From Mobula hypostoma (Eukaryota): 64,000 nt of DNA. Positions 5,061 through 64,000 of this stretch are shown piece by piece; positions within the stretch are counted from its first letter, which is position 1; each line of letters begins with the position of its first letter. The stretch spans positions 117,244,001 through 117,308,000 of the forward strand of contig NC_086097.1 of the NCBI RefSeq assembly GCF_963921235.1. Reading direction: 5' to 3'. The translations under genes and the position numbers were made by a program. The notes beneath the pieces are model-generated. The model made no database searches. It was not told where the DNA came from and worked only from the letters and a program-made list of their open reading frames with translations.

Positions 5061-5419
5061 GCCGAAGAAAAGGAAAAGCACAATGGCAACATACTGGGTA
5101 TACTCAGCAGGCCCAGCCCCACCAGGGAAACAGAGTTAATGTCTCAGATTAAAGGCCTTGCATTGGCACTGGGAAGATTTGATAATTAGCAGATTCTAAG
5201 ATTGTCAGAGTAACAGGAGTTTAGAGAAGGGAAATTTTGTGATCTAGTGGAGGACAGGAAAGATTAAATTAAAAAAGACAGCACAAGTGATAGAATAGAA
5301 TGATTGAAGTGTAGTTTTAAAGATTGCAATTTAACTTGTGCATTGGGATTGGCTGCCAATCCATACACCTGAAGGAATTTTGCATTTGTTGGGATCCCAG
5401 TGGCTTTCCTTCTCCAAGG

Positions 5420-7879: not shown

Positions 7880-8747
7880 AATAATTGAGGCAGCTGATTC
7901 TCGTTGGGGCTGGCTGCATAAATACCTCCAGAGACCAGGGTGTGGCTGCTGGATTGTTCTTGTCCTTACTCCTTGTATCCCTTGCTCTGCCTTCTGTTTC
8001 CTCGCCTGAAGCCCTACCTTGGCTTGCTGATAACTCTTGCCTTGCCTGAAGTTCTCGTCTCGCCTTGCTTTTCCAGAAGCCTTGCCTTGTCTTGCTAGTA
8101 ACTCTCATCTCGCAGTCTTGTCCTGGAGCCACCCTGTACCTAACTCCCTTCCTGTCCCTTGCCTCCACCTAGGTAAGCCAGGCTGTCTTGCCGTTACCTG
8201 CGGTTGGTTCTGTCCCTTCCTGTTCCTTGCCTCTGTCAGGTGGTGATCCGCGCCCTGCCCAGGAGGAGCCTCTAGCCTCTAGCCTCAAGCCTGAAGATTC
8301 CAGCCTCCTGCCTCCTGCCAAGCCTCACCTCAAGCCTCTAGCCTCTAGCCTCAAGCCTGAAGACTCCAGCCTCCTGCCAAGCCTCGCTTCTAGTCTATAG
8401 CTTCTAGCCTGAAGACTCCAGCCTCCTGATTCCTGCCAAGCCTCGCCTCAAGTCTCCAGCCACTAGCCTCTAGCCTCAAGCCTGAAGACTCCAGCCTCCT
8501 GCCTCCAGCCAAGCCTCGCCCTTGCGTAGTTCTGGGGTCAGAACCAGAGGCAAGACCCAGGTACTGGGTCCTTGTCCAGTCTCTGGCTCGGAGTCCAAGC
8601 CCGGGCTCCTAGCTTTCTTGTCCAGTCCTGTTGTTCCTGGTTTTCCTGTCCATGTCCTTGCTCTCACCCTGTATCCTAGTCCTGTCCCTAGTACTTCAGT
8701 GTCTGTGTCTTGCACTTGGGTCCATTCCCAGCCACCACCTTATGACA
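7880..8747 (+). mobile_element. Gypsy-like LTR (5' end obscured) with internal tandem repeat
   Basis: TATA-like cataaata near 7917; ends tcttgcacttgggtcc...tatgaCA like fish Gypsy LTRs; no TSD found. Confidence 0.5.
8268..8522. repeat. ~55-65-bp tandem repeat, about 4 copies
   Basis: gcctctagcctcaagcctgaaga(c/t)tccagcctcctgcc repeated. Confidence 0.9.
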
Positions 8748-10785: not shown

Positions 10786-11569
10786 TACAGTTCGGTCCAA
10801 AATGATTTGCTATATATGGATATCAAAAAATGTGCGGATCTGATAATCTGAACTGAATCTGAAACACTCTGCAGAAGTCAGTCTGCAACTGTAGAAAGAG
10901 AAGCAAAATATTTCAGATTGATCAGAACCACAATGATGCATCAGAATGTATCCCAAATTAAACAGTGCCCTATGAAACCAGCTTTAAAAATTATTCATGT
11001 ATGGCATGGCCACACTAATGCTTTCATTTCTGATACTCTTCTGTAATCAAACCACCCAGGGGAGTCTCTGCAAATTTTAAATTTGAATGCAAGTGCATCA
11101 GAAACTGGGGCTATTAGAAAATGCCCAAGATTGTTATTTCGTTAAAAGTATTAAATTGAAATAGAATAAATTTTGATGTTGAATATTTTGAACCACAGTT
11201 CCTCGCTCAGTGCTTGAAAAAATTATAATTCAGCAAGTGATTTTGAGAATTCTGTGTTACTGTAGTAGACCTCTAGGATTTTCTTTAAACAATCATTCTT
11301 TGCTCTGTTTGCTGGGTCAATCTACCCATAATTATTACACAGAAATATATTTAAATCATCTACATCTGAGACCCCAGAATCCAGCCAGTATATGCTCTAA
11401 TAAAACCCAGTTCTGATGAGATCTGAGAACGGTTTGAAATCCCTCTGACCAACACCGCTTGAGGGGTTTCCACTGAAAGTGATGGAGGTCACTGGGCGTA
11501 CCCCTCATGTTCCAGGTGAGGATAGTCAAGGTGGGCAGTAGCAATAGTTCCTCAGCCTTGATGCCAAAA

Positions 11570-12370
11570 TGTTGATCAATACTCCTGACATCATCATGTC
11601 ATTGATACTCCAGGTTGCCACGGGACGGTCAGAAATCACTTACTTGCTGCAGTTGGTAAAACTCCATCTTCCTCAGAACATCCTGGTGCAATTCTACCCT
11701 GCCATCATAGACAGCATCTCCACATCAGCCGTTACTGTCTGGTCTGGTGTAGCATTCCCTCACGATATATGGAGACTCCAGAGAACTGTCAGGTCAGTAG
11801 CTGCAGTCCGCCATCACTGCAGGACTTCTATGTCGAGCACAGGAAAAATCATTGCGGACTCTTCCCACCCCAGAAAACTGCCCTTTTGAAAGCTCCCTTC
11901 TGGAAAGTTCTATAGGGCTATTAAAATGGAAGCTTTACACCATCTGAGATGTTGCCTCCACCGAGAAGTTAATTTGATCCGCCACGCTAATTAGACCCCC
12001 AACACCCCGTCTACTACTTCAGTCACTGCATACAAAGTGCTAGAGGAACTCAGCAAGCCTAGAAGCTTCTATGGAAAGGAATAAACAGGCAACGTTTTGG
12101 GCTGAGACCGTTCATCAGATTAACCATTCTAGTTAGCGCCTGCCTACTTCCCTCAGTCATTTCACTGCACTTTAAACACATTAAATCACTTTGTATAATG
12201 CTGTTTGCATTGTAAATACTGACAATAATGCATTTATATACATTTAATTCTTTTTCTATACAGTTCTTTTTCTTTATACATAATTGTTGAATGCGGTTAT
12301 ATGTCACACCGACACACCACAGCAAATTTGTAATACGGGCAAATGTATGTGGTGAATAAAGTTGATCCGT
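11570..12370 (+). mobile_element. Rex1/Babar-type LINE 3' fragment containing a small Penelope-derived insert (~12030-12125)
   Basis: LPQNILVQFYPAIIDSISTSAVTVW...LQRTVRS...DSSHP; tail ggtgaataaagttgatcc. Confidence 0.75.
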
Positions 12371-29919: not shown

Positions 29920-30520
29920 TGAGGTCCAGGAATAGGTTCACGTGAATGATCCCAGGAATGAAAGGGTTAATGAATGGGGAGCGTTTGATGGTTCTGAGTC
30001 TGTATCCACTGGAGTTGAGGAGAATGAGGAAAGGCCTAGATAGGGCGAACATGGAGGGAGGTTTCCAACAATAGGCGAATCTCGGACCAGAGGACACAGC
30101 CTCAGAATACAAGGATGTCCCTTTGGAACTGAGAAAAGGAGGAATTTCTTTAGCCTGTGGTTGGTGAATCTGTGGAAATCATTGCCACTGATGGCTCTGG
30201 AAGTTGATTGGCTCTTGATTAGTAAGGGCGTGAAAGGTTCCAGGGAGAAGGCAGGAGAGCAGGAGTGAGAGGCATAATAACAGGAATTCTGCAGATGCTG
30301 GAAATTCAAGCAACATACATCAAAGTTGCTGGTGAACGCAGCAGGCCAGGCAGCATCTATAGGAAGAGGCGCAGTCGACGTTTCAGGCCGAGACCCTTCG
30401 TCACGGGTCTCGGCCTGAAACGTCGACTGCGCCTCTTCCTATAGATGCTGCCTGGCCTGCTGCGTTCACCAGCAACTTTGATGTATGTTGCGTGAGAGGC
30501 ATAATAATTGGCCATGATTC
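29920..30520 (+). mobile_element. CR1 3' end, hosting a hairpin insertion
   Basis: aggttcacgtgaatgatcccaggaatgaaagggtt...ggtgaatctgtggaa. Confidence 0.85.
30281..30491. mobile_element. Penelope-derived fold-back mini-element with a perfect 87-bp inverted repeat
   Basis: arms 30310-30396 and 30405-30491 are exact reverse complements, 8-nt loop; 16-bp TSD GTGAGAGGCATAATAA (30265-30280, 30492-30507); homologous to the ends of the PLE at 45845-47244. Confidence 0.9.
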
Positions 30521-33640: not shown

Positions 33641-33866
33641 AACACACATCAAAGTTGCTGGTGAACGCAGCAGGCCAGGCAGCAACTCTAGGAAGAGGTA
33701 CAGTCGACGTTTCAGGCTGAGATCCTTCATCAGGTCTGATGAAGGGTCGCGGCCTGAAACGTTGACTGTACCTCTTCCTAGAGTTGCTGCCTGGCCTGCT
33801 GCGTTCACCAGTAACTTTGATGTGTGTTGCTTGAATTTCCAGCATCTGCAGAATTCCTCATGTTTG
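33641..33866. mobile_element. Penelope-derived fold-back mini-element with back-to-back hammerhead cores
   Basis: arms ~33639-33733 and 33736-33830 (5 mismatches), 2-nt loop; 15-bp TSD CATGATTACAATTGC (33626-33640, 33867-33881). Confidence 0.9.
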
Positions 33867-33924
33867 CATGATTACAATTGCTATTTCTTTCTTTGCAAAA
33901 TCAGATATAGAAAATGGGCACGAG

Positions 33925-34300
33925 GTACCGCAGGTGCTGGAGATCTAGAACAATACACACAATACATTGGAGGAGCTCAGCAGGTCAAGCAGCATCTATG
34001 GATGAGAATAGACAGTCACCATTTCGGGCTGAGACCATTCTCAGGACTGGAAAGCAATGGGAAGAAGTCAGAATAAGGATGCTGGGGAGGGGAGGAAGAA
34101 GTACAAGGTAGCAAGTGATAAGTGAAACCGGGAGAGGGAGAGGGGTGAAGTAAAGAGCTGGGAAGTCGATCAGTGAAAAAGATATAGGGCTGGAGAAGTG
34201 GGAATCGGATAGGAGAGGACAGAAGGCCATGGAAGAAAGGAAAGGGGGAGGAGCACCAGAGGGAGGTGGTGGGCAGGTAAGAAGAGAAGGTATGAGTGAA
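33925..34300 (-). mobile_element. Penelope-like element terminal (pLTR) fragment
   Basis: homologous to 45845-46130; degenerate hammerhead ccagtcctgagaatggtctcagcccgaaatggtgactg. Confidence 0.75.
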
Positions 34301-35771
34301 AATGATATGTGCAAACAATTTCTTTAATACTTTGTTAAACTTGCTACCTTTTTTTGTTGGTAGCTTTAGTAAACAGTTAGTCACACAGGTCTGATGGATC
34401 AGGATGTAGAATTGTTATTTTCGTGCAGTTTAACATTCCTGTGCTTGCTGGTGTTATTATACAACCACCTATATACATAATTGTTCCGTGAATTTTCCAG
34501 TAATTATGATAGAGTTATTTTTGCATTTTTTTTTTAGTTTTCAGTAGCAGATATCGCACTACTTGAATTTGTCTGTTGTTGTCACTGATTTTTTTTGTTA
34601 TCTCCAGTTGGAGCATGATACAACTACAATTTTTAAGAGATATGGAGCTTAGAAAAGTAGAGGGCTATGTGGTAGGCAGCTTCTAGAATAGGTTGCAGGG
34701 TCAGCACAACATTGTGGGCTGTACTGTGCTGTAGATTTTCTGTGCTCTAACTGCTTTTTCCCCTTTGTCTATTCTTTGTTCTCTCAGCTTATCTATCTGC
34801 TCCATCTTTGTTCTCCCAGCACTTAATAAAATTGCCAGCAATAAGTTCTGTGCCTCATTCTTGACTTCTGAAGAAGCTTTGAATTGTAAAAACATCAGAA
34901 CCCAAGACAATGAGGTTGATGGTGCCCACTAAGGTAGCTTAAATAGCAATATCGAAAATCAAAATAACCGCAAAGGTGGGAAATCTGAAACGAGAGCTCG
35001 ATGCAATCAGTAGGTCAAGCAGAGTCTGTGGAAAGAGAAAATGTTAATGTTTCAGTTTTTGATCTGCTGAGTGTTTCCACCATGTTCTGGTTTTGCAGGG
35101 CGATTGTATTTGCAGCAGTATTTCAGGCCAACCTGCAGGGATATCCATGGAAAATTAAAGTTCTTTTTCTGAGCACTGTTGAGAAATGTCCATCATCACG
35201 TGAAAAAGGCTGGAGAAGTGTGGATATTTTTATTGAAACTGATGTAGAAAGTTGAATTCAGTGCTATACTTCAAAAAGAAACCCTGCAGCCAACCTCTCA
35301 CCAGCACAGTACTGTTGGTGTAAAACAAAGTGAGCAGAGCCTGGACGAAGGATCTTCAATGTGAACCATTCATTCTGTTTCACTTTCCACAGATGCTGCC
35401 TGACGTGATGAGTGTTTTTAGCACTTTTCTGTTTTTTTTATTATCAGTGCTCTCAGAACTACCCTCCTGAGCTGTTGAAGGAGACAAGCTGGAGCTGCTG
35501 TAATTTTACCAAAATAGAACTAGAGCTGTAAATTTGTTTGGGAAAATTGCAGGATGGTGAGGATAAACACAGAAAAACCAATCACTTCACTTGGGTTCAA
35601 ATATGTTACACTGTATTCATGCAACAAACAGTCAAATAGCAAGTAATTTCAGAAGGTATTGATGTTCTTCTCATGAAATAATAAAAAAGCATACAAGCTG
35701 GATAGGTATTTGAAGTGTAAGAATTTAAAACCAACATTCAGGGGGCCATTGACAGTGACTATTTTCTAAGC

Positions 35772-39599: not shown

Positions 39600-40090
39600 T
39601 GGCTTTCATTTAAATTGAGTGTGGTGGTGTAAGATAGGTTGGCTTGCACTGTTAGAAGGCAGGGATGTGCAATAAGCTGGCCTGCTCTCAGATTAAAGGT
39701 GAGGAATGTGATAAAGTGGCTTGCTCTTAAATAGAGGGTAGGGGAGTGTGATTGGCTTATTTGCTCTTAAATAGAGGGTAGCGGAGTGTGATTGGCTGAT
39801 TTGCTCTTAAATCCAGGGTAGGGGAGTGTGATTGGCTGACTTGCTCTTAAATAGAGGGTGGGGAAGTGTGATTGGCTGATTTGCTCCTAAATAGAGGGTA
39901 GGGGAGTGTGATTGGCTGATTTGCTCTTAATTAGAGGGTAGGGGAGTGTGATTGGCTGATTTGCTCTCAAATAGAGGGTAGGGGAGTATAATTGAATGAT
40001 TTTCTCTTAAATTTAGGGTAAGGGAGTGTGATTGGCCGATTTGCAATTAAATAGATGGGGGTGGGTTGGGTGGTGCAATAGACTGGCTTG
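39600..40090. repeat. 40-bp minisatellite: 8 regular units (39721-40040) plus degenerate flanking units
   Basis: consensus ttgctcttaaatagagggtaggggagtgtgattggctgat. Confidence 0.95.
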
Positions 40091-40096
40091 CATTTA

Positions 40097-43000
40097 AATT
40101 AGATTAGATTAGATTAGATTTAACTTTATTGTCATTGTGCTGAGTACAGATACAAAGCCTTTGAAATGCAGTTAGCATCTGACCAGAAATGCAAAGAGTA
40201 GTGTTATTTACAAAATAACTGCGAATAAAAAGTAAGTGCTACAGCACACAAATATATAAGTACTGAGACAGTACAATATGGGTGCAATACTGCTTAGCGC
40301 TGTGATGAGAGGTTCAACAGGGTCACAGGCTCAGGGAAGAAGCTCTTCCTGTGCCTGCTGGTGCGGGAGCGGAGGCTCCTGTAGCATCTACCAGATGGGA
40401 GGAGAGTAAAACGTCCATAGTTAGGGTGAGATGCATCCCTGATAATGCTTTTCACCCTGCCCAGGCAGTGTTTATGGTAGATGTTCTCAATGGTGGGCAA
40501 TTGGGTGTCGATAATCCACTGGGCAGTTTTCACCACACGCACGCTGGAGTGCTTTACGTTCCGATACAAGGACAAATGCCATACCACACTGAGATGCAGT
40601 TGGTGAATATGCTCTCAATGGTACAGCGGTAAAAGTCCATCAGTATCCTAGGACAGAGGTGAGTTTTCTTGATGTTCCGGAGGAAATAAAAGCTCTGTTT
40701 CGCCTTGTTGATCAGGGTGGAGGAATTCAGGGACCAGGTGAGATCCTCAGAAATGTGGACACCAAGGAATTTGAAGCTTGATATATGCTCCACTACAGCT
40801 CCGTTGATGTAGATAGGGGTGTGAGTGTGGCTCCTAGCATGCCTGAAGTCCACAGTGATAGAAACATAGAAACATAGAAAATAGGTGCAGGAGTAGGCCA
40901 TTCGGCCCTTCGAGCCTGCACCGCCATTTATTATGATCATGGCTGATCATCCAACTCAGAACCCAGCCTTCCCTCCATACCCCCTGACCCCTGTAGCCAC
41001 AAGGGCCATATCTAACTTCCTCTTAAACACAGCCAATGAACTGGCCTCAACAGTTTGCTGTGGCAGAGAATTCCACAGATTCACCACTCTCTGTGTGAAG
41101 AAGTTTTTCCTAATCTCGGTCCTAAAAGGCTTCCCCTCTATCCTCAAACTGTGACCCCTCGTTCTGGACCTCCCCAACATCGGGAACAATCTTCCCGCAT
41201 CTAGCCTGTCCAATCCCTTTAGGATCTTATACGTTTCAATCAGATCCCCCCTCAATCTTCTAAATTCCAACGAGTACAAGCCCAGTTCATCCAGTCTTTC
41301 TTCATATGAAAGACCTGCCATCCCAGGAATCAATCTGGTGAACCTTCTTTGTACTCCCTCTATGGCAAAGATGTCTTTCCTCAGATTAGGGGACCAAAAC
41401 TGCACACCATACTCCAGGTGTGGTCTCACCAAGGCCTTGTACAACTGCAGTAGTACCTCCCTGCTCCTGTACTCGAATCCTCTCGCTATAAATGCCAGCA
41501 TACCGTTCGCCTTTTTCACCGCCTGCTGTACCTGCATGCCTACTTTCAATGACTGGTGTATAATGACACCCAGGTCTCGTTGCACCTCCCCTTTTCCTAA
41601 TCGGCCACCATTCAGATAATAATCTGTTTTCCTATTTTTGCCACCAAAGTGGATAACTTCACATTTATCCACATTAAATTGCATCTGCCATGAGTTTGCC
41701 CACTCACCCAACCTATCCAAGTCACCCTGCATCCTCTTAGCATCCTCCTCACTGCTAACACTGCCACCCAGCTTCGTGTCATCCGCAAACTTGGAGATGC
41801 TGCATTTAATTCCCTCATCCAAGTCATTAATATATATTGTAAACAACTGGGGTCCCAGCACTGAGCCTTGCGGTACCCCACTAGTCACCGCCTGCCATTC
41901 TGAAAAGGTCCCGTTTATTCCCACTCTTTGCTTCCTGTCTGCTAACCAATTCTCCACCCACACCAATACCTTACCCCCAATACCGTGTGCTTTAAGTTTG
42001 CACACTAATCTCCTGTGTGATCTCCTTGGTCTTCTGGGTGTTAAGAGCCAGGTTGTTGTTGCCACACCACGTGGCCAGGTGCTGGACCTCATCCCTGTAG
42101 GCCGTCTCGTCATCCCCTCTGATCAGGCCAACCACCGTGGTGTTGTCCGCGAACCTGATTATGGAGTTAGAACCATGTACAGGAACGCAGTCATAGGTGT
42201 AAAGGGAGTACAGAAGAGGGCTCAGCACAGCCTTGAGGCACGCTGGTGTTCAGGGTGAGAGTGGAGGAGGAGAGGCTGTCTAATTTAACTGATTGGGGTC
42301 TGTTAGTCAGAAAGTCCAAGGTCCAATTGCAGCTGGATGAGCTGATACCAAGCTGGCGAAGTTTGGCGATCAGCTTGGAGGGGATCATAGTATTGAATGC
42401 CGAACTAAAGTCAATGAACATCATTCTGATGTAAGAGTTGAGGCTGTCCAGGTGGGTCAGGGCAGAGTGAAGTGCCGTGGAGATGGCATCCTCTGTTGAC
42501 CTGTTGGTGCAATAGGCAAATTGATGGGGGTCCAGGGTAGTGGGCAGATAGGATTTCAGATGTGATAGAACCATTCTCTCAAAGCACTTTGCAGTGTTGG
42601 GGGTGAGTGCAAATGGTTGGCAGTCATTCAGGCCCGTGGCAGAGGAATGCTTTGGCACTGGCACTATGGTGGCGATCTTGAAGCTTGTGGGGACAACTGC
42701 CTGGGCCAGGGACAGATTGAAAATGTCCGTGAAGACCCCGGCCAGCTGCCCTGCATAGACTCTGAGCACACGGCCAGGAATTCCATCCGGACCAGCTGCC
42801 TTCCGTACATTCACCCTGCTCAGGGTGGCACAAACATCGGAGGTGGAAAGTGAGAGGGGCAGTTCACCAGGTGGGAGATTCGCTTTGAGGATGACCTCCT
42901 TGTTCTCTCGGTCGAAGCGAGCGTAGAAGTAATTGAGCTCATCAGGGAGGGAAGCAGAGCTGGAAGGGGGCACAGTACTAGATGGTTTGAAGTCTGTAAT

Positions 43001-44434
43001 GACCTGTATACCATGCCACATGTGCCGGGGGTCCGAGGAGTTCTCCTCAATTCTCTGTTTGTATATGTGTTTAGCCTGAGAGATTCCCCTCCTCAGGTTG
43101 GCCCTGGCTGAGCTGTAAGCCTCCTGGTCTCCAGACCTGAAGGCGGAATCTCTGGCTTTGAGCAGGAGGTGAACTTCTCTGTTCATCCATGGTTTCTGAT
43201 TGGGGAAAACTTTTATTGTTTTTGTGATGTCACTCTATCTTACACTTGTTGATGTGCTCAAGGACGGAGTTGGTATATCAATCAATGTTGAGCTAAGAGT
43301 CTGTGGTGGCATGGGCAGCAAACGTGCTCCAGTCTGTGTGCTGGAATTGATGTTGAAGAACAGAGTCAGCCCCCTCCAGCCAGATCTTAATAGTCTTCAT
43401 TGTGGGTTTCACACGTTTAATGACTGGGCTATACTTGGGAAGTAGAAACAATGAAAGTTGGTCGGACTGTCCCAGGTGGGGGAGGGTAGTGGCTTTGTAA
43501 ACGTCAGCCACATTTGTGTAGACATGATCTAAGGTTTTATTACCCCTTGTGGTGCATGATACCTTTTGGTAAAATATTGGAAGCACAGTACGTAGGTTAC
43601 AATGATTAAAGTCCCCAGCGACAATAAAGGCTCCGTCTGGATGCAATGTCTGCAGCTTGCTAATGGTGGCACTGAGGTCTTTCATGGCTACTTTAACATT
43701 AGCATCTGGTGGAACATAAACTGCGACAGCAATGATGCATGTAAACGCTCCAGGATGATTAAAAAGGTCTGTACTTAATAATCAAGGTATTCCAGATCAG
43801 CAGAGCAATAAGTGTCAGCGATGGTAGAGTTAGTGCACCATGATCGATTCATGTAGATGCATACACCACCTCCTGTACTTTTACCTGTCGCTGTTGCAGT
43901 TCTGTCAGCCCTGAAGACCGTGCGCCCTTCCAGTTCCACCACATTGTTTGGGACATCACTGTTTAGCCATGTCTCCATAAAAAACATGATGTTGCAATCC
44001 ACAAGCCTTCTTAGTGTGAGGGTCCAAGTCCTTAGTTCGTCCAGCTTGTTCGTCAGAGACTGAACATTGTCGAGGAAGATGCTAGGTAGCGCTGGCCGGT
44101 GTGGATTTAGCATTAGGTAGCACGCAAACCTCCACGCTTCTCCTGTCTTTGTTTACAGTCTCGATGCCGGCGCCAGGTCCTTCCGGTCGGAGCGAGTTGA
44201 ATGCAGGTCCGCTGTGTCCTTACTAACCGGAGGTAGTTGGTCGAAGTTGAATGGATAGTCCAAAACTGTGTTGGTGCATCAATAGTTAATGTCCAAAAGT
44301 GACTGTTTGCTGTAAGTGTAGTTCACATAGCCGAATCGAGCAAACATGCAGGAAACAAGCAGATAAATTAACACTATTTTTCGAAATCTGGTAAGACACT
44401 GAGCCTCACGATACACACGCACTGACGCCATCTG
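40097..44434 (-). mobile_element. essentially full-length Rex1/Babar-type LINE (APE endonuclease + RT), disrupted
   Basis: LPSIFLDNVQSLTNKLDEL, METWL, GGGVCIY, AGDFNH, LDHVY (APE); KAAGPDGIPG, FIDFSSAFNT, VPQG, RFADNT (RT); (TCTAA)n tail at 40097-40120; 5' end ggcagatggcg. Confidence 0.93.
40860..42016 (-). mobile_element. young 5'-truncated CR1 nested in the Rex1 RT
   Basis: stop-free frame [28 protein letters not shown]..to stop at 40956; (TTTCTATG)n tail; GTGAT duplicated at 40855-40859 and 42017-42021. Confidence 0.97.
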
Positions 44435-45127: not shown

Positions 45128-45892
45128 TTTCTGATCTTCATGCACTGATGGGATTAATGCTGCAATGACCGATCAATCCATTCAGTTGCACTATTATTGT
45201 GATGTTAAAATAAAGAATAAAACTGGAAGAAGCAGGCGATGAATTGGGGCAAAAGTTACTCAGATCAAATCAAGTTTAATTGTCGTTCAAACCATCCATG
45301 GATAGATCCAAACAAGACAGCATTCCTCTGGAGCCAAGCTGCAAAAACGTGCATGTGCAGTCAAAATAGTGAGAAAGAGAGAAAAGAAGAACATAGTTAT
45401 GTAAGAAAACATATTTTTAGTCCAAGAACCTGAGTGACAAGTCCCACAAGTTGATGCTTCTGGGCAGTCCAGCCTGTAATTATCCTGATCCAACACTAGC
45501 GAGCTCACCAATGGGAGAGACCAACCCCACCAACCAACACCACCTCCCGACCACCAAAACAAGCACGGAGGCCAGGCTACAACAAGACCCAGAGGCTTGA
45601 GGCCTAGTCCTGGTCCCATTCCCAGTTTCTTCCCCACAGACAGCTGGGAACTAGTGTCTAAACTGAAAGAGCTGCCCCACACACAAGTCAAGCAACAGTC
45701 TGAAATAAACACCCTCACAGAATCATGCAATCATGCCTTGCAAAGAAACTGAAGTTATTTCCTGATTATAGAAGGGAGCGGTGAAACTCTGTTGATTCCC
45801 AAGGTAAGTTCCTTGCACAGTTTATCCGTTTGTATAACAGACATAACACGCTGGAGGAACTCAGCAGGTCGGGCAGCATCCATGGAAACGAT

Positions 45893-45930
45893 CAGTCAAT
45901 GTTTCGGGCCGGAACCCTTCGTCAGGACTG
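45893..45930 (-). ncRNA. minimal hammerhead ribozyme motif
   Basis: cagtc-CTGACGA-a-ggg ttccgg ccc-GAAAC-ATT-gactg. Confidence 0.6.
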
Positions 45931-47118
45931 TAGAGGGAAGGGGCAGAGGCCCTATAAAGAAGGTGGGGGAGGGTGGGAAGGAGAAGGCTGGTAGGTTCCA
46001 GGTGAAAAACCAGTAAGGGGAAAGATAAAGGGGTGGGGGAGGGGAAGCAGGGAGGTGATAGGCAGGAAAGGTGAAGAAGGAATAGGGGAAAACACAATGG
46101 GAAGTAGAAGGAGGCGGAACCATGAGAGAGATGATAGGCAGCTGGGGGAGGGGGCAGAGTGAAACTGGGATGGGGGACAGGAGGGGGAGGGAATTACCAG
46201 AAGTTGGAGAATTCTATTTTCATACCAAGGGGCTGGAGACTACCTAAACGGTATATGAGGTGTTGCTCCTCCAACCTGAGTTTAGCCTCATCATGGCTGT
46301 AGAGGAGGCCATGTATGGACATATCCGAATGGGAATGTGAAGCAGAGTTGAAGTGGGTGGCTACCGGGAGATCCTGTCTGTTGTGGCGGACGGAGCAGAG
46401 GTGCTCGACGAAGTGGTCCCCCAATCTGCGTCGGGTTTCACCGATGTAGAGGAGGCCGCACTGGGAGCACCGGATGCAATAAATGACCCCAACAGACTCA
46501 AAAGTGAAGTGTTGCCTCACCTGGAAAGACTGTTTGGGGCTCCGTATGGTGGTAAGAGAGGAGGTGTAGGGACAGGTGTAGCACTTACGCTTACAGGGAT
46601 AAGTGCCAGGTGGGAGATCCGTGGGGAGGGTCATGTGGATCAGAGAGTCCTGGAGGGACCGATCCCTGCGGAAAGCGAAGAGGGGTGGAAAGGGAAAGAT
46701 GTGCTTAGTGGTGGGGTCCTGTTGAAGGTGGTGGAAGTTGCGGAAGATAATGTGCTGGATCCGGAGAGGTGGTAGGTTGGAGGAGCAACACCTCATATAC
46801 CGTCTAGGTAGTCTCCAGCCCCTTGGTATGAACATAGAATTCTCCAACTTCCGGTAATCCCCTCCCCCTCCCGTTCCCCATCCCAGTTTCACTCTGCTCC
46901 CTCCCCCGGCTGCCTATTATCTCCCTCATGGTTCCACCTCCTACTACCCATTGTGTTTTCCCCTCTTCTTTCTTCACCTTTCCTGCCTATCATCTCCCTG
47001 CTTCCCCTACCCCACCCCTTTATCTTTCCCCTTACTGGTTTTTCACCTGGAGCCTACCAGCCTTCTCCTTCCCACCCTCCCCCCACCTTCTTTATAGGGC
47101 CTCTGACCCTTCCTCCTA

Positions 47119-47156
47119 CAGTCCTGATGAAGGGTTCTGTCCCGAAACGTTGACTG
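47119..47156 (+). ncRNA. minimal hammerhead ribozyme motif (best preserved copy)
   Basis: stem I cagtc/gactg; core CTGATGA plus extra A; stem II ggg-ttctgt-ccc; GAAAC-GTT with palindromic ACGT and no stem III loop. Confidence 0.7.
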
Positions 47157-47334
47157 ATCGTTTCCATGGATGCTGCCCGACCTGCTGAGTTCCTCCAGCG
47201 TGTTGTGAGTGTTGCTTTGACCCCAGCATCTGCAGAGTATTTTACGTTTGTATAACAGACATGATTTTATTAATGGTGACACTCCAAAGAAGATGAGGCA
47301 AAGCCAACAAAGTCCAATTATATTTATGCCATAT

Positions 47335-47600
47335 TTGACCTGTACTCACTGGAGTTAGGAAGAATATTTTGGTTAGGGGGAGGGTCACAGGAGATCTTAT
47401 TGAAACCTATCAAATTGAAATGCCCAGATAGAGTGGACAAGGAGATGTTTCTTATAGTGGTAGTATTGTACCAGAGGATACAGCCTCAGAACACAAGGAC
47501 TTCCCTTTAGAAGTAAAGAGGAGGAATTTCTTTAGCCAGAGGGTGGTGAATCTTTTGAGTTCATTGCTACAGATGGCGGCGAAGGCCAAGTCATTGGGTA
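47335..47600 (+). mobile_element. CR1 fragment
   Basis: cctgtactcactggagtt...tttagccagagggtggtgaatc. Confidence 0.8.
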
Positions 47601-47677
47601 CCCTTACCGTACATCAATGGGGTGTGCAAGGAAACTGGAGCACCGGGTGGAAACCCATGCTCCCATGGGGAAAATGG

Positions 47678-52712: not shown

Positions 52713-53254
52713 TGCACAGTGGCTGCTTTATTAGTTATGCCTGCTCATTAATACAAATATCGAATCAGCCAGTCACGCAGCAGCAACTCAACGTGTGCAG
52801 ACAGGATCAAGAGGTTCAGTTGTTGTTCAAACCAAACATTGAATGGGCAAGATAGGAGACTTTGACTGTGGAATGATTGTTGGTGTCAGGAGGGGTGGTT
52901 TGAGTATCTCAGAAACTGCTGATCCCCTGGGATTTTCACACACAACAGCCTCTAGCGTTTACAGAGAATAACGCAAAATACAAAGAGCATCCGGAGAGTG
53001 ACTGCCCCATGGATAAAAGCAACTTGTTAATGAGAGAGATTGGAGGTGAATGGCCAGACTGGCTAAAGCTGACAGGGAGGAGACAGTAATTCCCATAGCC
53101 ACACATCACAACAGTGGTGTGCAAATGAGCAAGTTGGACACATGACATGCTGCACCTTGAAGAGGAGGGGCTGCATCAGCAGAAGATCATGAGCACCCAC
53201 TCTGTGGCCACTTTATTAGATACAGGAGATACCTAATTAAGTGGCCACTAAGTG
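52712..53254 (+). mobile_element. Tc1-derived non-autonomous element (family A), terminal hairpin 53198-53254
   Basis: gactttgactgtggaatgattgttggtg..gagtatctcagaaactgctgat; two opposed TIR copies at the 3' end. Confidence 0.85.
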
Positions 53255-54682: not shown

Positions 54683-55518
54683 CACTCAGTGGCCACTTCA
54701 TCGGGTGCAGGAAGTACCTAATAAAGTGGCCACGGAACGTTCGTGGTCTTCTGCGTCTGTTGCCCATCCACCTCAAAGTTTGATGTGTTTTGTGTTCAGA
54801 GATGCTCTTCTGCTCATCACTGTTGTAACACATTGCTTTTTGAGTTACTGTCACCTTCTTGTCAGGTTGAACCAGTCTGGTTATTCTACTCTGGGCTCTC
54901 TCATTAAGAAGGTGTTTTCACCCACAGAGCTGCTGCTCATTGGATATTTTGTGTTTTTCACATCATTCCTGTAAACTCTAGAGACTGTTGAGTGTGAACA
55001 TCCCAGGATATCAGCAATTTCTGGGTTACTCAAACCACTCCGTCTGGCACCATCAATCATTCCAGTCAAAGTCACTGAAATCACTTTTCTTCCCCATTGG
55101 TCTGAATAACAACTGAACCTCTTGACCATGTCTGCGTGCTTTTATGCATTGAGTAGCTGCCACATGATTGATTGATTAGATAAACACACACAAAATGGGG
55201 GAGGAATTCAACAGTCAGGCAGCATAGATGGAAATGAATAAACAGTCAACATTTCGGTTTTCAGGTCAAGACCCATCATATGGAAATGATTGAACAGTCA
55301 ACATTTTGAGCCGAGACCCTTTATTAATCCCGATGAAGGGTCGTGGCCGGAAAAGTTGTATTTTTATTTGTTTCCATGGCTGCTGAATGTTGAGCTGCTG
55401 AGTTCCTGAGCATTCTGTGTGATTGCTCTGGATTTCCAGCATCTGCAGAATCTCTTGTGTTTCTAGCTGATTAGATATTTGCATTAACCAGTGTACCTGA
55501 TAAGGTGGCCGCTGAATG
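54683..55518 (-). mobile_element. Tc1-derived non-autonomous element (family A), TA-flanked, with nested Penelope hairpin
   Basis: TA|CACTCAGTGGCCACTT..hairpin..; GMIDGARRSGLSNPEIADILGCSHSTVSRVY; ..AAGGTGGCCGCTGAATG|TA. Confidence 0.88.
55183..55465. mobile_element. older Penelope-derived fold-back mini-element
   Basis: gagccgagaccctt / gatgaagggtcgtggccggaaa; tail ctggatttccagcatctgcagaat; TGATTAGATA repeated at 55173-55182 and 55468-55477. Confidence 0.7.
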
Positions 55519-58044: not shown

Positions 58045-58428
58045 TTTTCTGGAATATGTGATGAATAAACTCTTCTCAGGCTTCCAGCCGGGTACAGATA
58101 TTGATTTTAACTAACGTTTCAATGACAAACTCTGCCATCTTCATCAGGGGTGATGCCTGGGCAGGTCCAGTCTGGTGGTATTTAAACACCCATTGTCCAT
58201 CCCTCCTAATTAGTTAGTCCTCATCCAATCAGGTTTCAACTTTCCCACCTTATTTACAATTAAATTCCAGTTCTTACTTAGAGCGAGACCTACATCTTTG
58301 TTAAAATTCTTTCCCTCTAGTTTTACTTCAATGGCTTCCTTCACCAGTCGATTTCAAAAGCTATTGGTATGGCACAGTAGTTTTGTACCATCAAAATCAA
58401 TTCTATATTCAATGTGACTGCAATGTTT
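58045..58428 (-). mobile_element. second Penelope-type family: endonuclease C-terminus and pLTR
   Basis: RIDFDGTKLL..RLVKEAIEVKLEGKNFNKDVGLALSKNW matches the Penelope/Poseidon-type EAIEI..NFN.D.G..LS..W tail. Confidence 0.8.
58109..58151 (-). ncRNA. hammerhead motif of the second PLE family
   Basis: CTGATGA-a-gatggca gagtt tgtcatt-GAAAC-GTT; stem I weak. Confidence 0.5.
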
Positions 58429-62401: not shown

Positions 62402-63094
<693 letters not shown>

Positions 63095-63857: not shown

Positions 63858-64000
63858 TGAGCGGGTAGACAAAGCGGACGGCGTAAGCAAGCCTTTAACC
63901 TGGAGTGCAGAACAAACTCAAGCAGCAGCTGAGGAGAAAAATTGACCTTGTTTTGTTTTTTTTCTGCCACAGTTGCTGCCTGACTCGTTGTTTCCTCCAG

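Follow-up and report, generated by a model that had tools for sequence, protein, structure and literature searches.

An endonuclease-bearing Penelope-like insertion with inverted 3' ends and a one-sided tail in a ray-like cartilaginous fish, and its possible formation by two-ended priming

The insert at 45827-47262 of the window (the whole 64-kb stretch of DNA that was analyzed) is almost certainly a dead-on-arrival copy of a very abundant, endonuclease-positive (EN+) Penelope-like retroelement (PLE) of a ray-like cartilaginous fish, of Neptune/Nematis type as judged from one motif. Its layout has already been described for EN+ Penelope-like insertions. Taken as a whole, this reading of the locus is held with strong expectation. 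The proposed mechanism, i.e. priming from both target strands with the two cDNAs joined via a few complementary bases, is regarded as somewhat more probable than not.

Anatomy of the insert and affiliation of the element

The features of the insert are listed below; the element copy itself spans 45845-47244.

45827..45844, no strand: left copy of the target-site duplication (TSD), 18 bp, 67% A+T
45845..46773, minus strand: long 5'-truncated copy with the end of the ORF, the 3' UTR/pLTR and a hammerhead; its 3' end is at 45845, without a tail
45893..45930, minus strand: minimal type I hammerhead (left), with boxes and stems I and II intact, the stem III palindrome lost (CA for CG), and the triplet AUU
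46194..46766, minus strand: C-terminal ORF fragment of 190 aa plus the stop, with a CX3CxxC linker (CKRKCYTC) and a GIY-YIG core with an internal CxxC
46770..46776, no strand: head-to-head junction; the short copy begins at 46774
46774..47244, plus strand: short inverted 5'-truncated copy with the last 27 ORF codons, the 3' UTR/pLTR, a hammerhead and the tail; its 3' end is at 47244
47119..47156, plus strand: minimal type I hammerhead (right), with boxes, stems I and II, and the palindromic AACGUU intact, and the triplet GUU
47205..47244, plus strand: segment found on one arm only, 40 nt, of which approximately the last 30 are the PLE tail
47245..47262, no strand: right copy of the TSD

The 18-bp TSD and the inverted arms of about 430 bp that the first-pass annotation had placed here were recovered at the same positions. 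The two TSD copies are exact. The left boundary is blurred, since 6 of the last 9 nt of the left copy are the same as in the element end. As a control, 1000 random pairs of 90-nt windows at a spacing of 1.4 kb were compared; a shared word of at least 13 occurred in 5 pairs, all of which overlapped the real TSD, and the longest shared word away from it was 11. The arms, 45845-46277 (433 bp) and 46774-47204 (431 bp), are identical in 406 of 434 columns. Their 24 substitutions comprise 18 transitions (7 at CpG) and 6 transversions, and the decay of the copy amounts to ca. 2-3% per arm. Both outer ends of the insert are element 3' ends, and the 40 nt at 47205-47244 have no counterpart on the left arm. 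No palindrome was found at the 46770-46776 junction. On the basis of protein relatives, which predict HPT codons upstream, and not of a DNA comparison, the junction would include an overlap of 3 nt (AGG).

The ORF runs from 46766 to 46197 on the minus strand and has its stop at 46194-46196. It closes with a C-terminal GIY-YIG core that has two cysteines between GIY and YIG, VIYCIRCSQCGLLYIGE, followed by the stop; a CxxC within the GIY-YIG core is a mark of PLE endonucleases. The 190-aa fragment matched Pfam PF01541 (GIY-YIG) with an E of 0.0019 and 18.9 bits, below the cut-off of 22.6. Its best relative, the ray protein P0001, is identical at 153 of 189 positions (81%). The GIY-YIG ORF fragment of Penelope-like kind in the first-pass annotation was thus borne out. 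A search of solved structures returned three matches at E 0.33-0.53, none of them meaningful.

Among 279 candidate proteins, nine were relatives at E up to 1e-10 (seven from Hypanus or Mobula and one from Rhincodon), which makes a ray the probable host; none of the nine is full length. YIDD is present upstream of the endonuclease in five of them. For P0005, the Pfam GIY-YIG match (23.2 bits) exceeds the cut-off, and RVT_1 was matched weakly, under its cut-off, at E 9.3e-05 (one of three relatives scanned). These two observations suggest that the relatives carry the second RT half upstream of the same endonuclease; the RT is missing from the truncated copy. A CX2-5CxxC linker ahead of the endonuclease was found in the 190-aa fragment and in 7 of 9 relatives. 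Craig et al. (2021, PMC8557442) treat such a linker as characteristic of Neptune and Nematis and report that Penelope/Poseidon lack it. A linker upstream of a C-terminal GIY-YIG is therefore common to these clades and the present copy. The target of the copy, in contrast to these clades, is mixed sequence and not a microsatellite.

In published EN+ PLE insertion units, an inverted 5'-truncated copy by the 5' end and a tail of 30-40 bp at one end are typical (Craig et al. 2021, PMC8557442). Rotifer PLEs have inverted pLTRs, one of which carries a tail of 31 bp, and TSDs of 8-10 bp (Arkhipova et al. 2013, PMC3846280), compared to 18 bp here. Inverted pLTRs and short 3' extensions are also named as PLE peculiarities in a curation guide (PMC8969392). 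The insert shares with canonical C-terminal-EN units, as these two primary sources present them, the head-to-head 5'-truncated copies, the tail at one end, the enclosing TSD, the pLTR hammerhead and the CxxC. It differs from them in having no full ORF, no upstream direct pLTR and no junction palindrome. In a literature search that had most subscription papers outside its reach, neither PLE hairpins in rays nor a statement of two-ended priming for inverted PLE copies was found, and the available text of a ray genome preprint (10.64898/2026.10.27.761883) contains no mention of Penelope.

Contigs aligned on 46278-47620 were retrieved from four public runs and numbered 106,500, 106,680, 67,005 and 7,940; these counts take in another repeat near 47500 and are not equivalent to a copy number. 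The best-supported joint in the four runs connects 46278 to 46774 on opposite strands (20, 26, 12 and 2 contigs). Thus, the family normally continues straight where the present locus turns round. Under a second species label, one contig covers 47214-47396 (tail, TSD and right flank) with five differences and with 31 letters on the element side; by this contig, the insertion is probably shared with the second species label. Scans with a family DNA pattern returned nothing in viral contigs and nothing in metagenome contigs. Six loci from a further pattern scan were discarded as chance matches, as they had only the 19-20-nt pattern in common and no profile match.

Hammerhead motifs of the two arms

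The minimal hammerheads that had been annotated at 45893-45930 (minus strand) and 47119-47156 (plus strand) both parse fully as pLTR motifs. Each 38-nt motif consists of a 5-bp stem I, CUGANGA, an extra A, a 3-bp stem II, GAAA, 2 nt and UH; G10.1-C11.1, the extra base after A9 and helix I are present in both arms. The hammerhead search suggested along with that annotation gave a divided result. Across the 64 kb of the window, a descriptor scan returned exactly these two hammerheads, and 100 first-order Markov simulations of the window gave no hit. Rfam, in contrast, returned no match at the gathering score (at E up to 10, there were three chance lncRNA matches and no hammerhead family).

The metazoan min-HHR (Cervera and De la Pena 2014, PMC4209133), for which dual motifs on opposite strands and 100-700 bp apart were already noted, is likewise of type I and shares the loopless stem III, the 5-bp helix I, G10.1-C11.1 and the additional base that separates 9 from 10.1. 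Helix II has 3 bp here compared to 7-8 bp in the Schistosoma families of that paper. The present motifs also depart from the min-HHR in that the left copy has lost the 15.2-16.2 palindrome and the right copy has GUU. For the right-arm palindrome (15.2-16.2, AACGUU), a self-duplex energy of -4.1 kcal/mol was predicted; that for AACAUU on the left arm was +2.8 kcal/mol, and the palindrome looked for as the mark of a dimer is lost there. A GUC triplet is found in 3 of 11 aligned window ends and, at 47161-47163, in 2 of 8 loose-end consensus rows. The left CA and the right GUU would be changes of the CpG-decay type. No covariation above that of shuffled alignments was detected in the hammerhead stems of the 11 window ends, most of which are truncated or decayed.

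In the predicted fold of either strand, both motifs are fully paired. The motifs lie on opposite strands, so a transcript of the locus contains one motif and its antisense, never two hammerheads. The stem III dimer that had been brought forward for these motifs is, for both of these reasons, impossible in cis at this locus. The arms of all four inverted insertions in the window (the other three are listed below) run 5' past the cleavage site, and their templates were therefore uncleaved. For the Anolis element PAc, uncleaved RNA is reported as the main substrate, with HHR cleavage dispensable (Frangieh et al. 2024, PMC11167929).

Three further observations were made on the hammerhead region and its like. 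A conserved stem between the tail and an upstream motif was predicted but not supported, as two-sided change was seen in 1 of 16 pairs and the single-strand z-scores were -0.43 to -1.57. From an AUG inside the hammerhead core, a frame at 47127-47243 (plus strand) is open to the end of the tail, its sole stop falling at the GUU/GUC position. This frame may be the start of the element ORF; in rotifer PLEs, the pLTR plus tail hold the first codons (PMC3846280). The differing spacer lengths of other subfamilies would shift it. Finally, a different hammerhead-like motif at ca. 58105-58144 (minus strand) has CUGAUGA, an extra A, a stem II of about 7 bp and GAAACGUU, without stem I pairing, and is perhaps a relic of another PLE family.

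Smaller inverted insertions and other features of the window

The remaining PLE-derived units to which the insert had been compared are as follows.

30281..30491, no strand: mini-hairpin of another subfamily; 16-bp TSD; tail on the left arm; junction at 30404, within the hammerhead core
33641..33866, no strand: mini-hairpin; 15-bp TSD; tail on the right arm; junction core/2 nt/core at 33734-33735
55183..55467, no strand: older mini-hairpin of a third sequence type; 10-bp TSD; tail on the right arm; junction read as core/2 nt/core at 55328-55329
12030, 33925 and 35340: relics, i.e. single pLTR ends without an inverted partner; the tail is kept by 33925 only

The mini-hairpins, which had been said to match the terminal sequence and tail of the insert, exist, with TSDs of their own and a tail on one arm. 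Their identity to the insert in the shared end is 71-79% overall (73-79% for the hairpins at 30281 and 33641, 71-78% for that at 55183), however, and they do not belong to the same subfamily. The hairpins at 30281 and 33641 are 90-92% identical to each other, and both arms of the latter differ from both arms of the former at the same five positions; this fits a hairpin built at each insertion from a linear template. The spacer from the hammerhead to a conserved downstream motif varies in length among the types. Neither arm of the 30281-30491 hairpin retains a whole hammerhead. The core/2 nt/core reading at 55328-55329 is probably correct and assumes that the left core has decayed. In the left arm of the same hairpin, part of the hammerhead region is repeated in tandem at 55255-55325, which suggests a template jump or re-priming.

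These comparisons leave the first-pass annotation without its view of the insert as the parent type of one hairpin family. The insert has no RT, and the two hairpins that are so alike are both distant from it. By sequence comparison, it appears to be a cousin, not the parent, of the nearby hairpins, which come from at least two other subfamilies. The three hairpins represent three combinations of subfamily and junction. Nor do the four inverted insertions form the size series, from coding element to pure hairpin, that had been drawn up for them; two classes (1400 bp vs. 285, 226 and 211 bp) were found with nothing between. What survives of that proposal is the shared architecture. All four have a TSD, head-to-head ends and a one-sided tail. 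In the insert, it is the short arm that bears the tail, and at 30281 the arm that is longer by a little; at 33641 and 55183 the arms are of approximately equal length and one of each pair is tailed. Thus, the tail is not tied to the longer arm. The junctions of all three mini-hairpins are located in or beside the 5' core box of the hammerhead, which is a real lead (n = 3).

The relics at 12030, 33925 and 35340 had been annotated as tailed; they are pLTR ends, but the tail is present in one. A single tailed PLE 3' end of ca. 380 bp was noted at 33915-34302 (minus strand), its start lying ca. 50 bp beyond the right end of the 33641 hairpin. Weak pLTR relics at 34995-35097, 5087-5161, 10860-10920, 63935-63991 and 20794 were found using a profile of 11 ends (E 6.6e-06 to 0.08) or the tail motif; the one at 34995-35097 may be what heavy decay has left of a small hairpin.

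Non-LTR retrozymes (Li et al. 2026, bioRxiv 10.64898/2026.07.22.740005) are likewise short, non-coding derivatives of PLE ends with type I hammerheads, and they are also known from one chondrichthyan. They are defined in that preprint as tandem direct repeats, whereas the units of the window are inverted and single, and none of 10 tandem-repeat rows overlaps the PLE units of the window. Retrozyme identity was therefore rejected.

The window holds other features as well. An open frame at 62402-63094 (plus strand) matches, in residues 67-136, cerebellin-1 (E 2e-31) and cerebellin-4 (E 9e-29) chains, and, close to the window's end, putatively represents the initial coding portion of a cerebellin gene. 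Two long open frames at 40959-43234 (minus strand; 388 and 347 aa) contain RVT_1 above the cut-off and are LINE-type fragments; they gave no match to the PLE relatives. A 40-bp minisatellite of 8.4 copies occupies 39721-40055, and a degenerate array with a unit of 59-66 bp occupies 8267-8517. An inverted pair of 96-bp segments (52869-52964 and 54969-55064), 2 kb apart, is 85% complementary.

Formation of the inverted ends

According to two-ended priming, the element protein would make a staggered cut that leaves 18-nt 3' overhangs, and each target strand would then serve as primer for the reverse transcription of unprocessed element RNA. The top strand would start at the tail-less site and be extended by ca. 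930 nt; the bottom strand would start at the tail site and be extended by ca. 470 nt. The two cDNAs would pair over a few complementary bases, and fill-in synthesis would complete the join, which accounts for the TSD, for the pair of 5'-truncated copies placed head to head and for a tail that is present at one end. The order of these events and the polarity of the overhangs are those that we infer. The mini-hairpins would record the same type of event in other subfamilies, with both cDNAs halted at the hammerhead. The hammerheads would be passengers that were copied twice, and inactive at the present locus.

The position of the tail bears most directly on this account. The short arm is 40 nt longer than the long arm at its 3' end, so that any target-primed model has to assume that the bottom strand at the right was primed as well. 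A long, tail-less cDNA that folded upon itself would copy only its own content and thus could not supply these 40 nt. The fold-back mechanism assumed in the first-pass annotation is contradicted by the same observation. Biochemical data on another PLE are in keeping with two primings. The purified Anolis PLE protein, a predicted dimer, cleaves and extends both strands, and its reverse transcription starts at two sites that bracket the tail (PMC11167929). In that system, the start lies 111-118 nt behind the start codon that follows G8; here, the tail ends lie 118-135 nt from core A6, which is close. In both systems, slightly more than 110 nt separate the hammerhead core from the tail behind it and the template is uncleaved, and extension of both strands by the PAc protein would explain the inverted layout. 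PAc is, however, a Poseidon element and belongs to another clade, and the available text of PMC11167929 does not apply its results to inverted insertions.

The alternative that survives best is self-priming, in which the antisense strand folds and copies its own first part, and the one-sided tail arises later by endonuclease trimming or by pairing with a second, short cDNA. It is the published reading of palindromic PLE junctions, with self-priming on an antisense template (Arkhipova et al., PMC3846280), and EN-mediated resolution has been named as the source of the tail (PMC8557442). Both arms carry two bases that the family contigs seldom have: 46920 (ca. 1% or less) and 46873 (2-13% in three DNA runs), among the best 40 of 707 rows. 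This sharing would be expected of self-priming and speaks against two-ended priming, although a single source subfamily would account for it just as a single template molecule would. The near-identity of hairpin arms (90/91 and 90/95) also favors self-priming. On the other hand, a target-primed single cDNA cannot extend the short arm alone, and ca. 3 paired bases, with no palindrome, are available at the 46770-46776 junction. On balance, self-priming is considered a possible but rather doubtful origin.

The clustering of hairpin junctions at the 5' core allows a refinement of two-ended priming. The hammerhead, in which the stem I strand and the start of the core form a near-palindrome, could be a favored site for cDNAs to stop and join, and hairpins of 210-290 bp would then recur across subfamilies. 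This idea is offered tentatively. The same clustering (3 of 3 in or beside the 5' core box, two with a core/2 nt/core center) could be read to mean that the hairpins of ca. 210-290 bp are a self-propagating, non-autonomous family derived from a similar element, transcribed as hairpins and moved by a PLE protein; non-autonomous PLE derivatives have been described (PMC8557442; bioRxiv 10.64898/2026.07.22.740005). Such a family is improbable, given that the three hairpins are three different combinations of subfamily and junction and that arms are more alike within than between hairpins. Neither one shared junction nor arm-by-arm inheritance of variants was seen among the three hairpins of the window. 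No strand switch within the pLTR was found among the best 15 of 783 joints, which counts weakly against a self-propagating family, as a threshold of 80% misses most hairpins at 73-79% identity and several of the listed joints come without their kind.

It is very improbable that the inverted arm was a subsequent addition, whether through insertion of a second PLE into the existing one or through local rearrangement, with gene conversion between the arms. PLEs are reported to insert into or beside earlier copies (PMC6765202) and the arms differ by 24 substitutions, but a single TSD encloses the whole unit and none the short copy alone, and the layout recurs in all four inverted insertions. Of 18 listed right-arm positions, 14 show the family base on the left arm, and 10 further substitutions are probably left-arm changes, in line with two arms that have aged equally after a single event.

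The insert itself is of little importance, since the repeat is very common, this copy of it has decayed, and the layout has been published before. It is of use as a clean record of how PLEs make inverted ends and one-sided tails, in that the TSD, both 3' ends and the junction can be read. The tail on the short arm argues against a simple fold-back, and one locus cannot settle the question. If two-ended priming with preferred joining at the hammerhead is true, ray genomes would constitute a large natural record for settling how the inverted ends of PLEs form.
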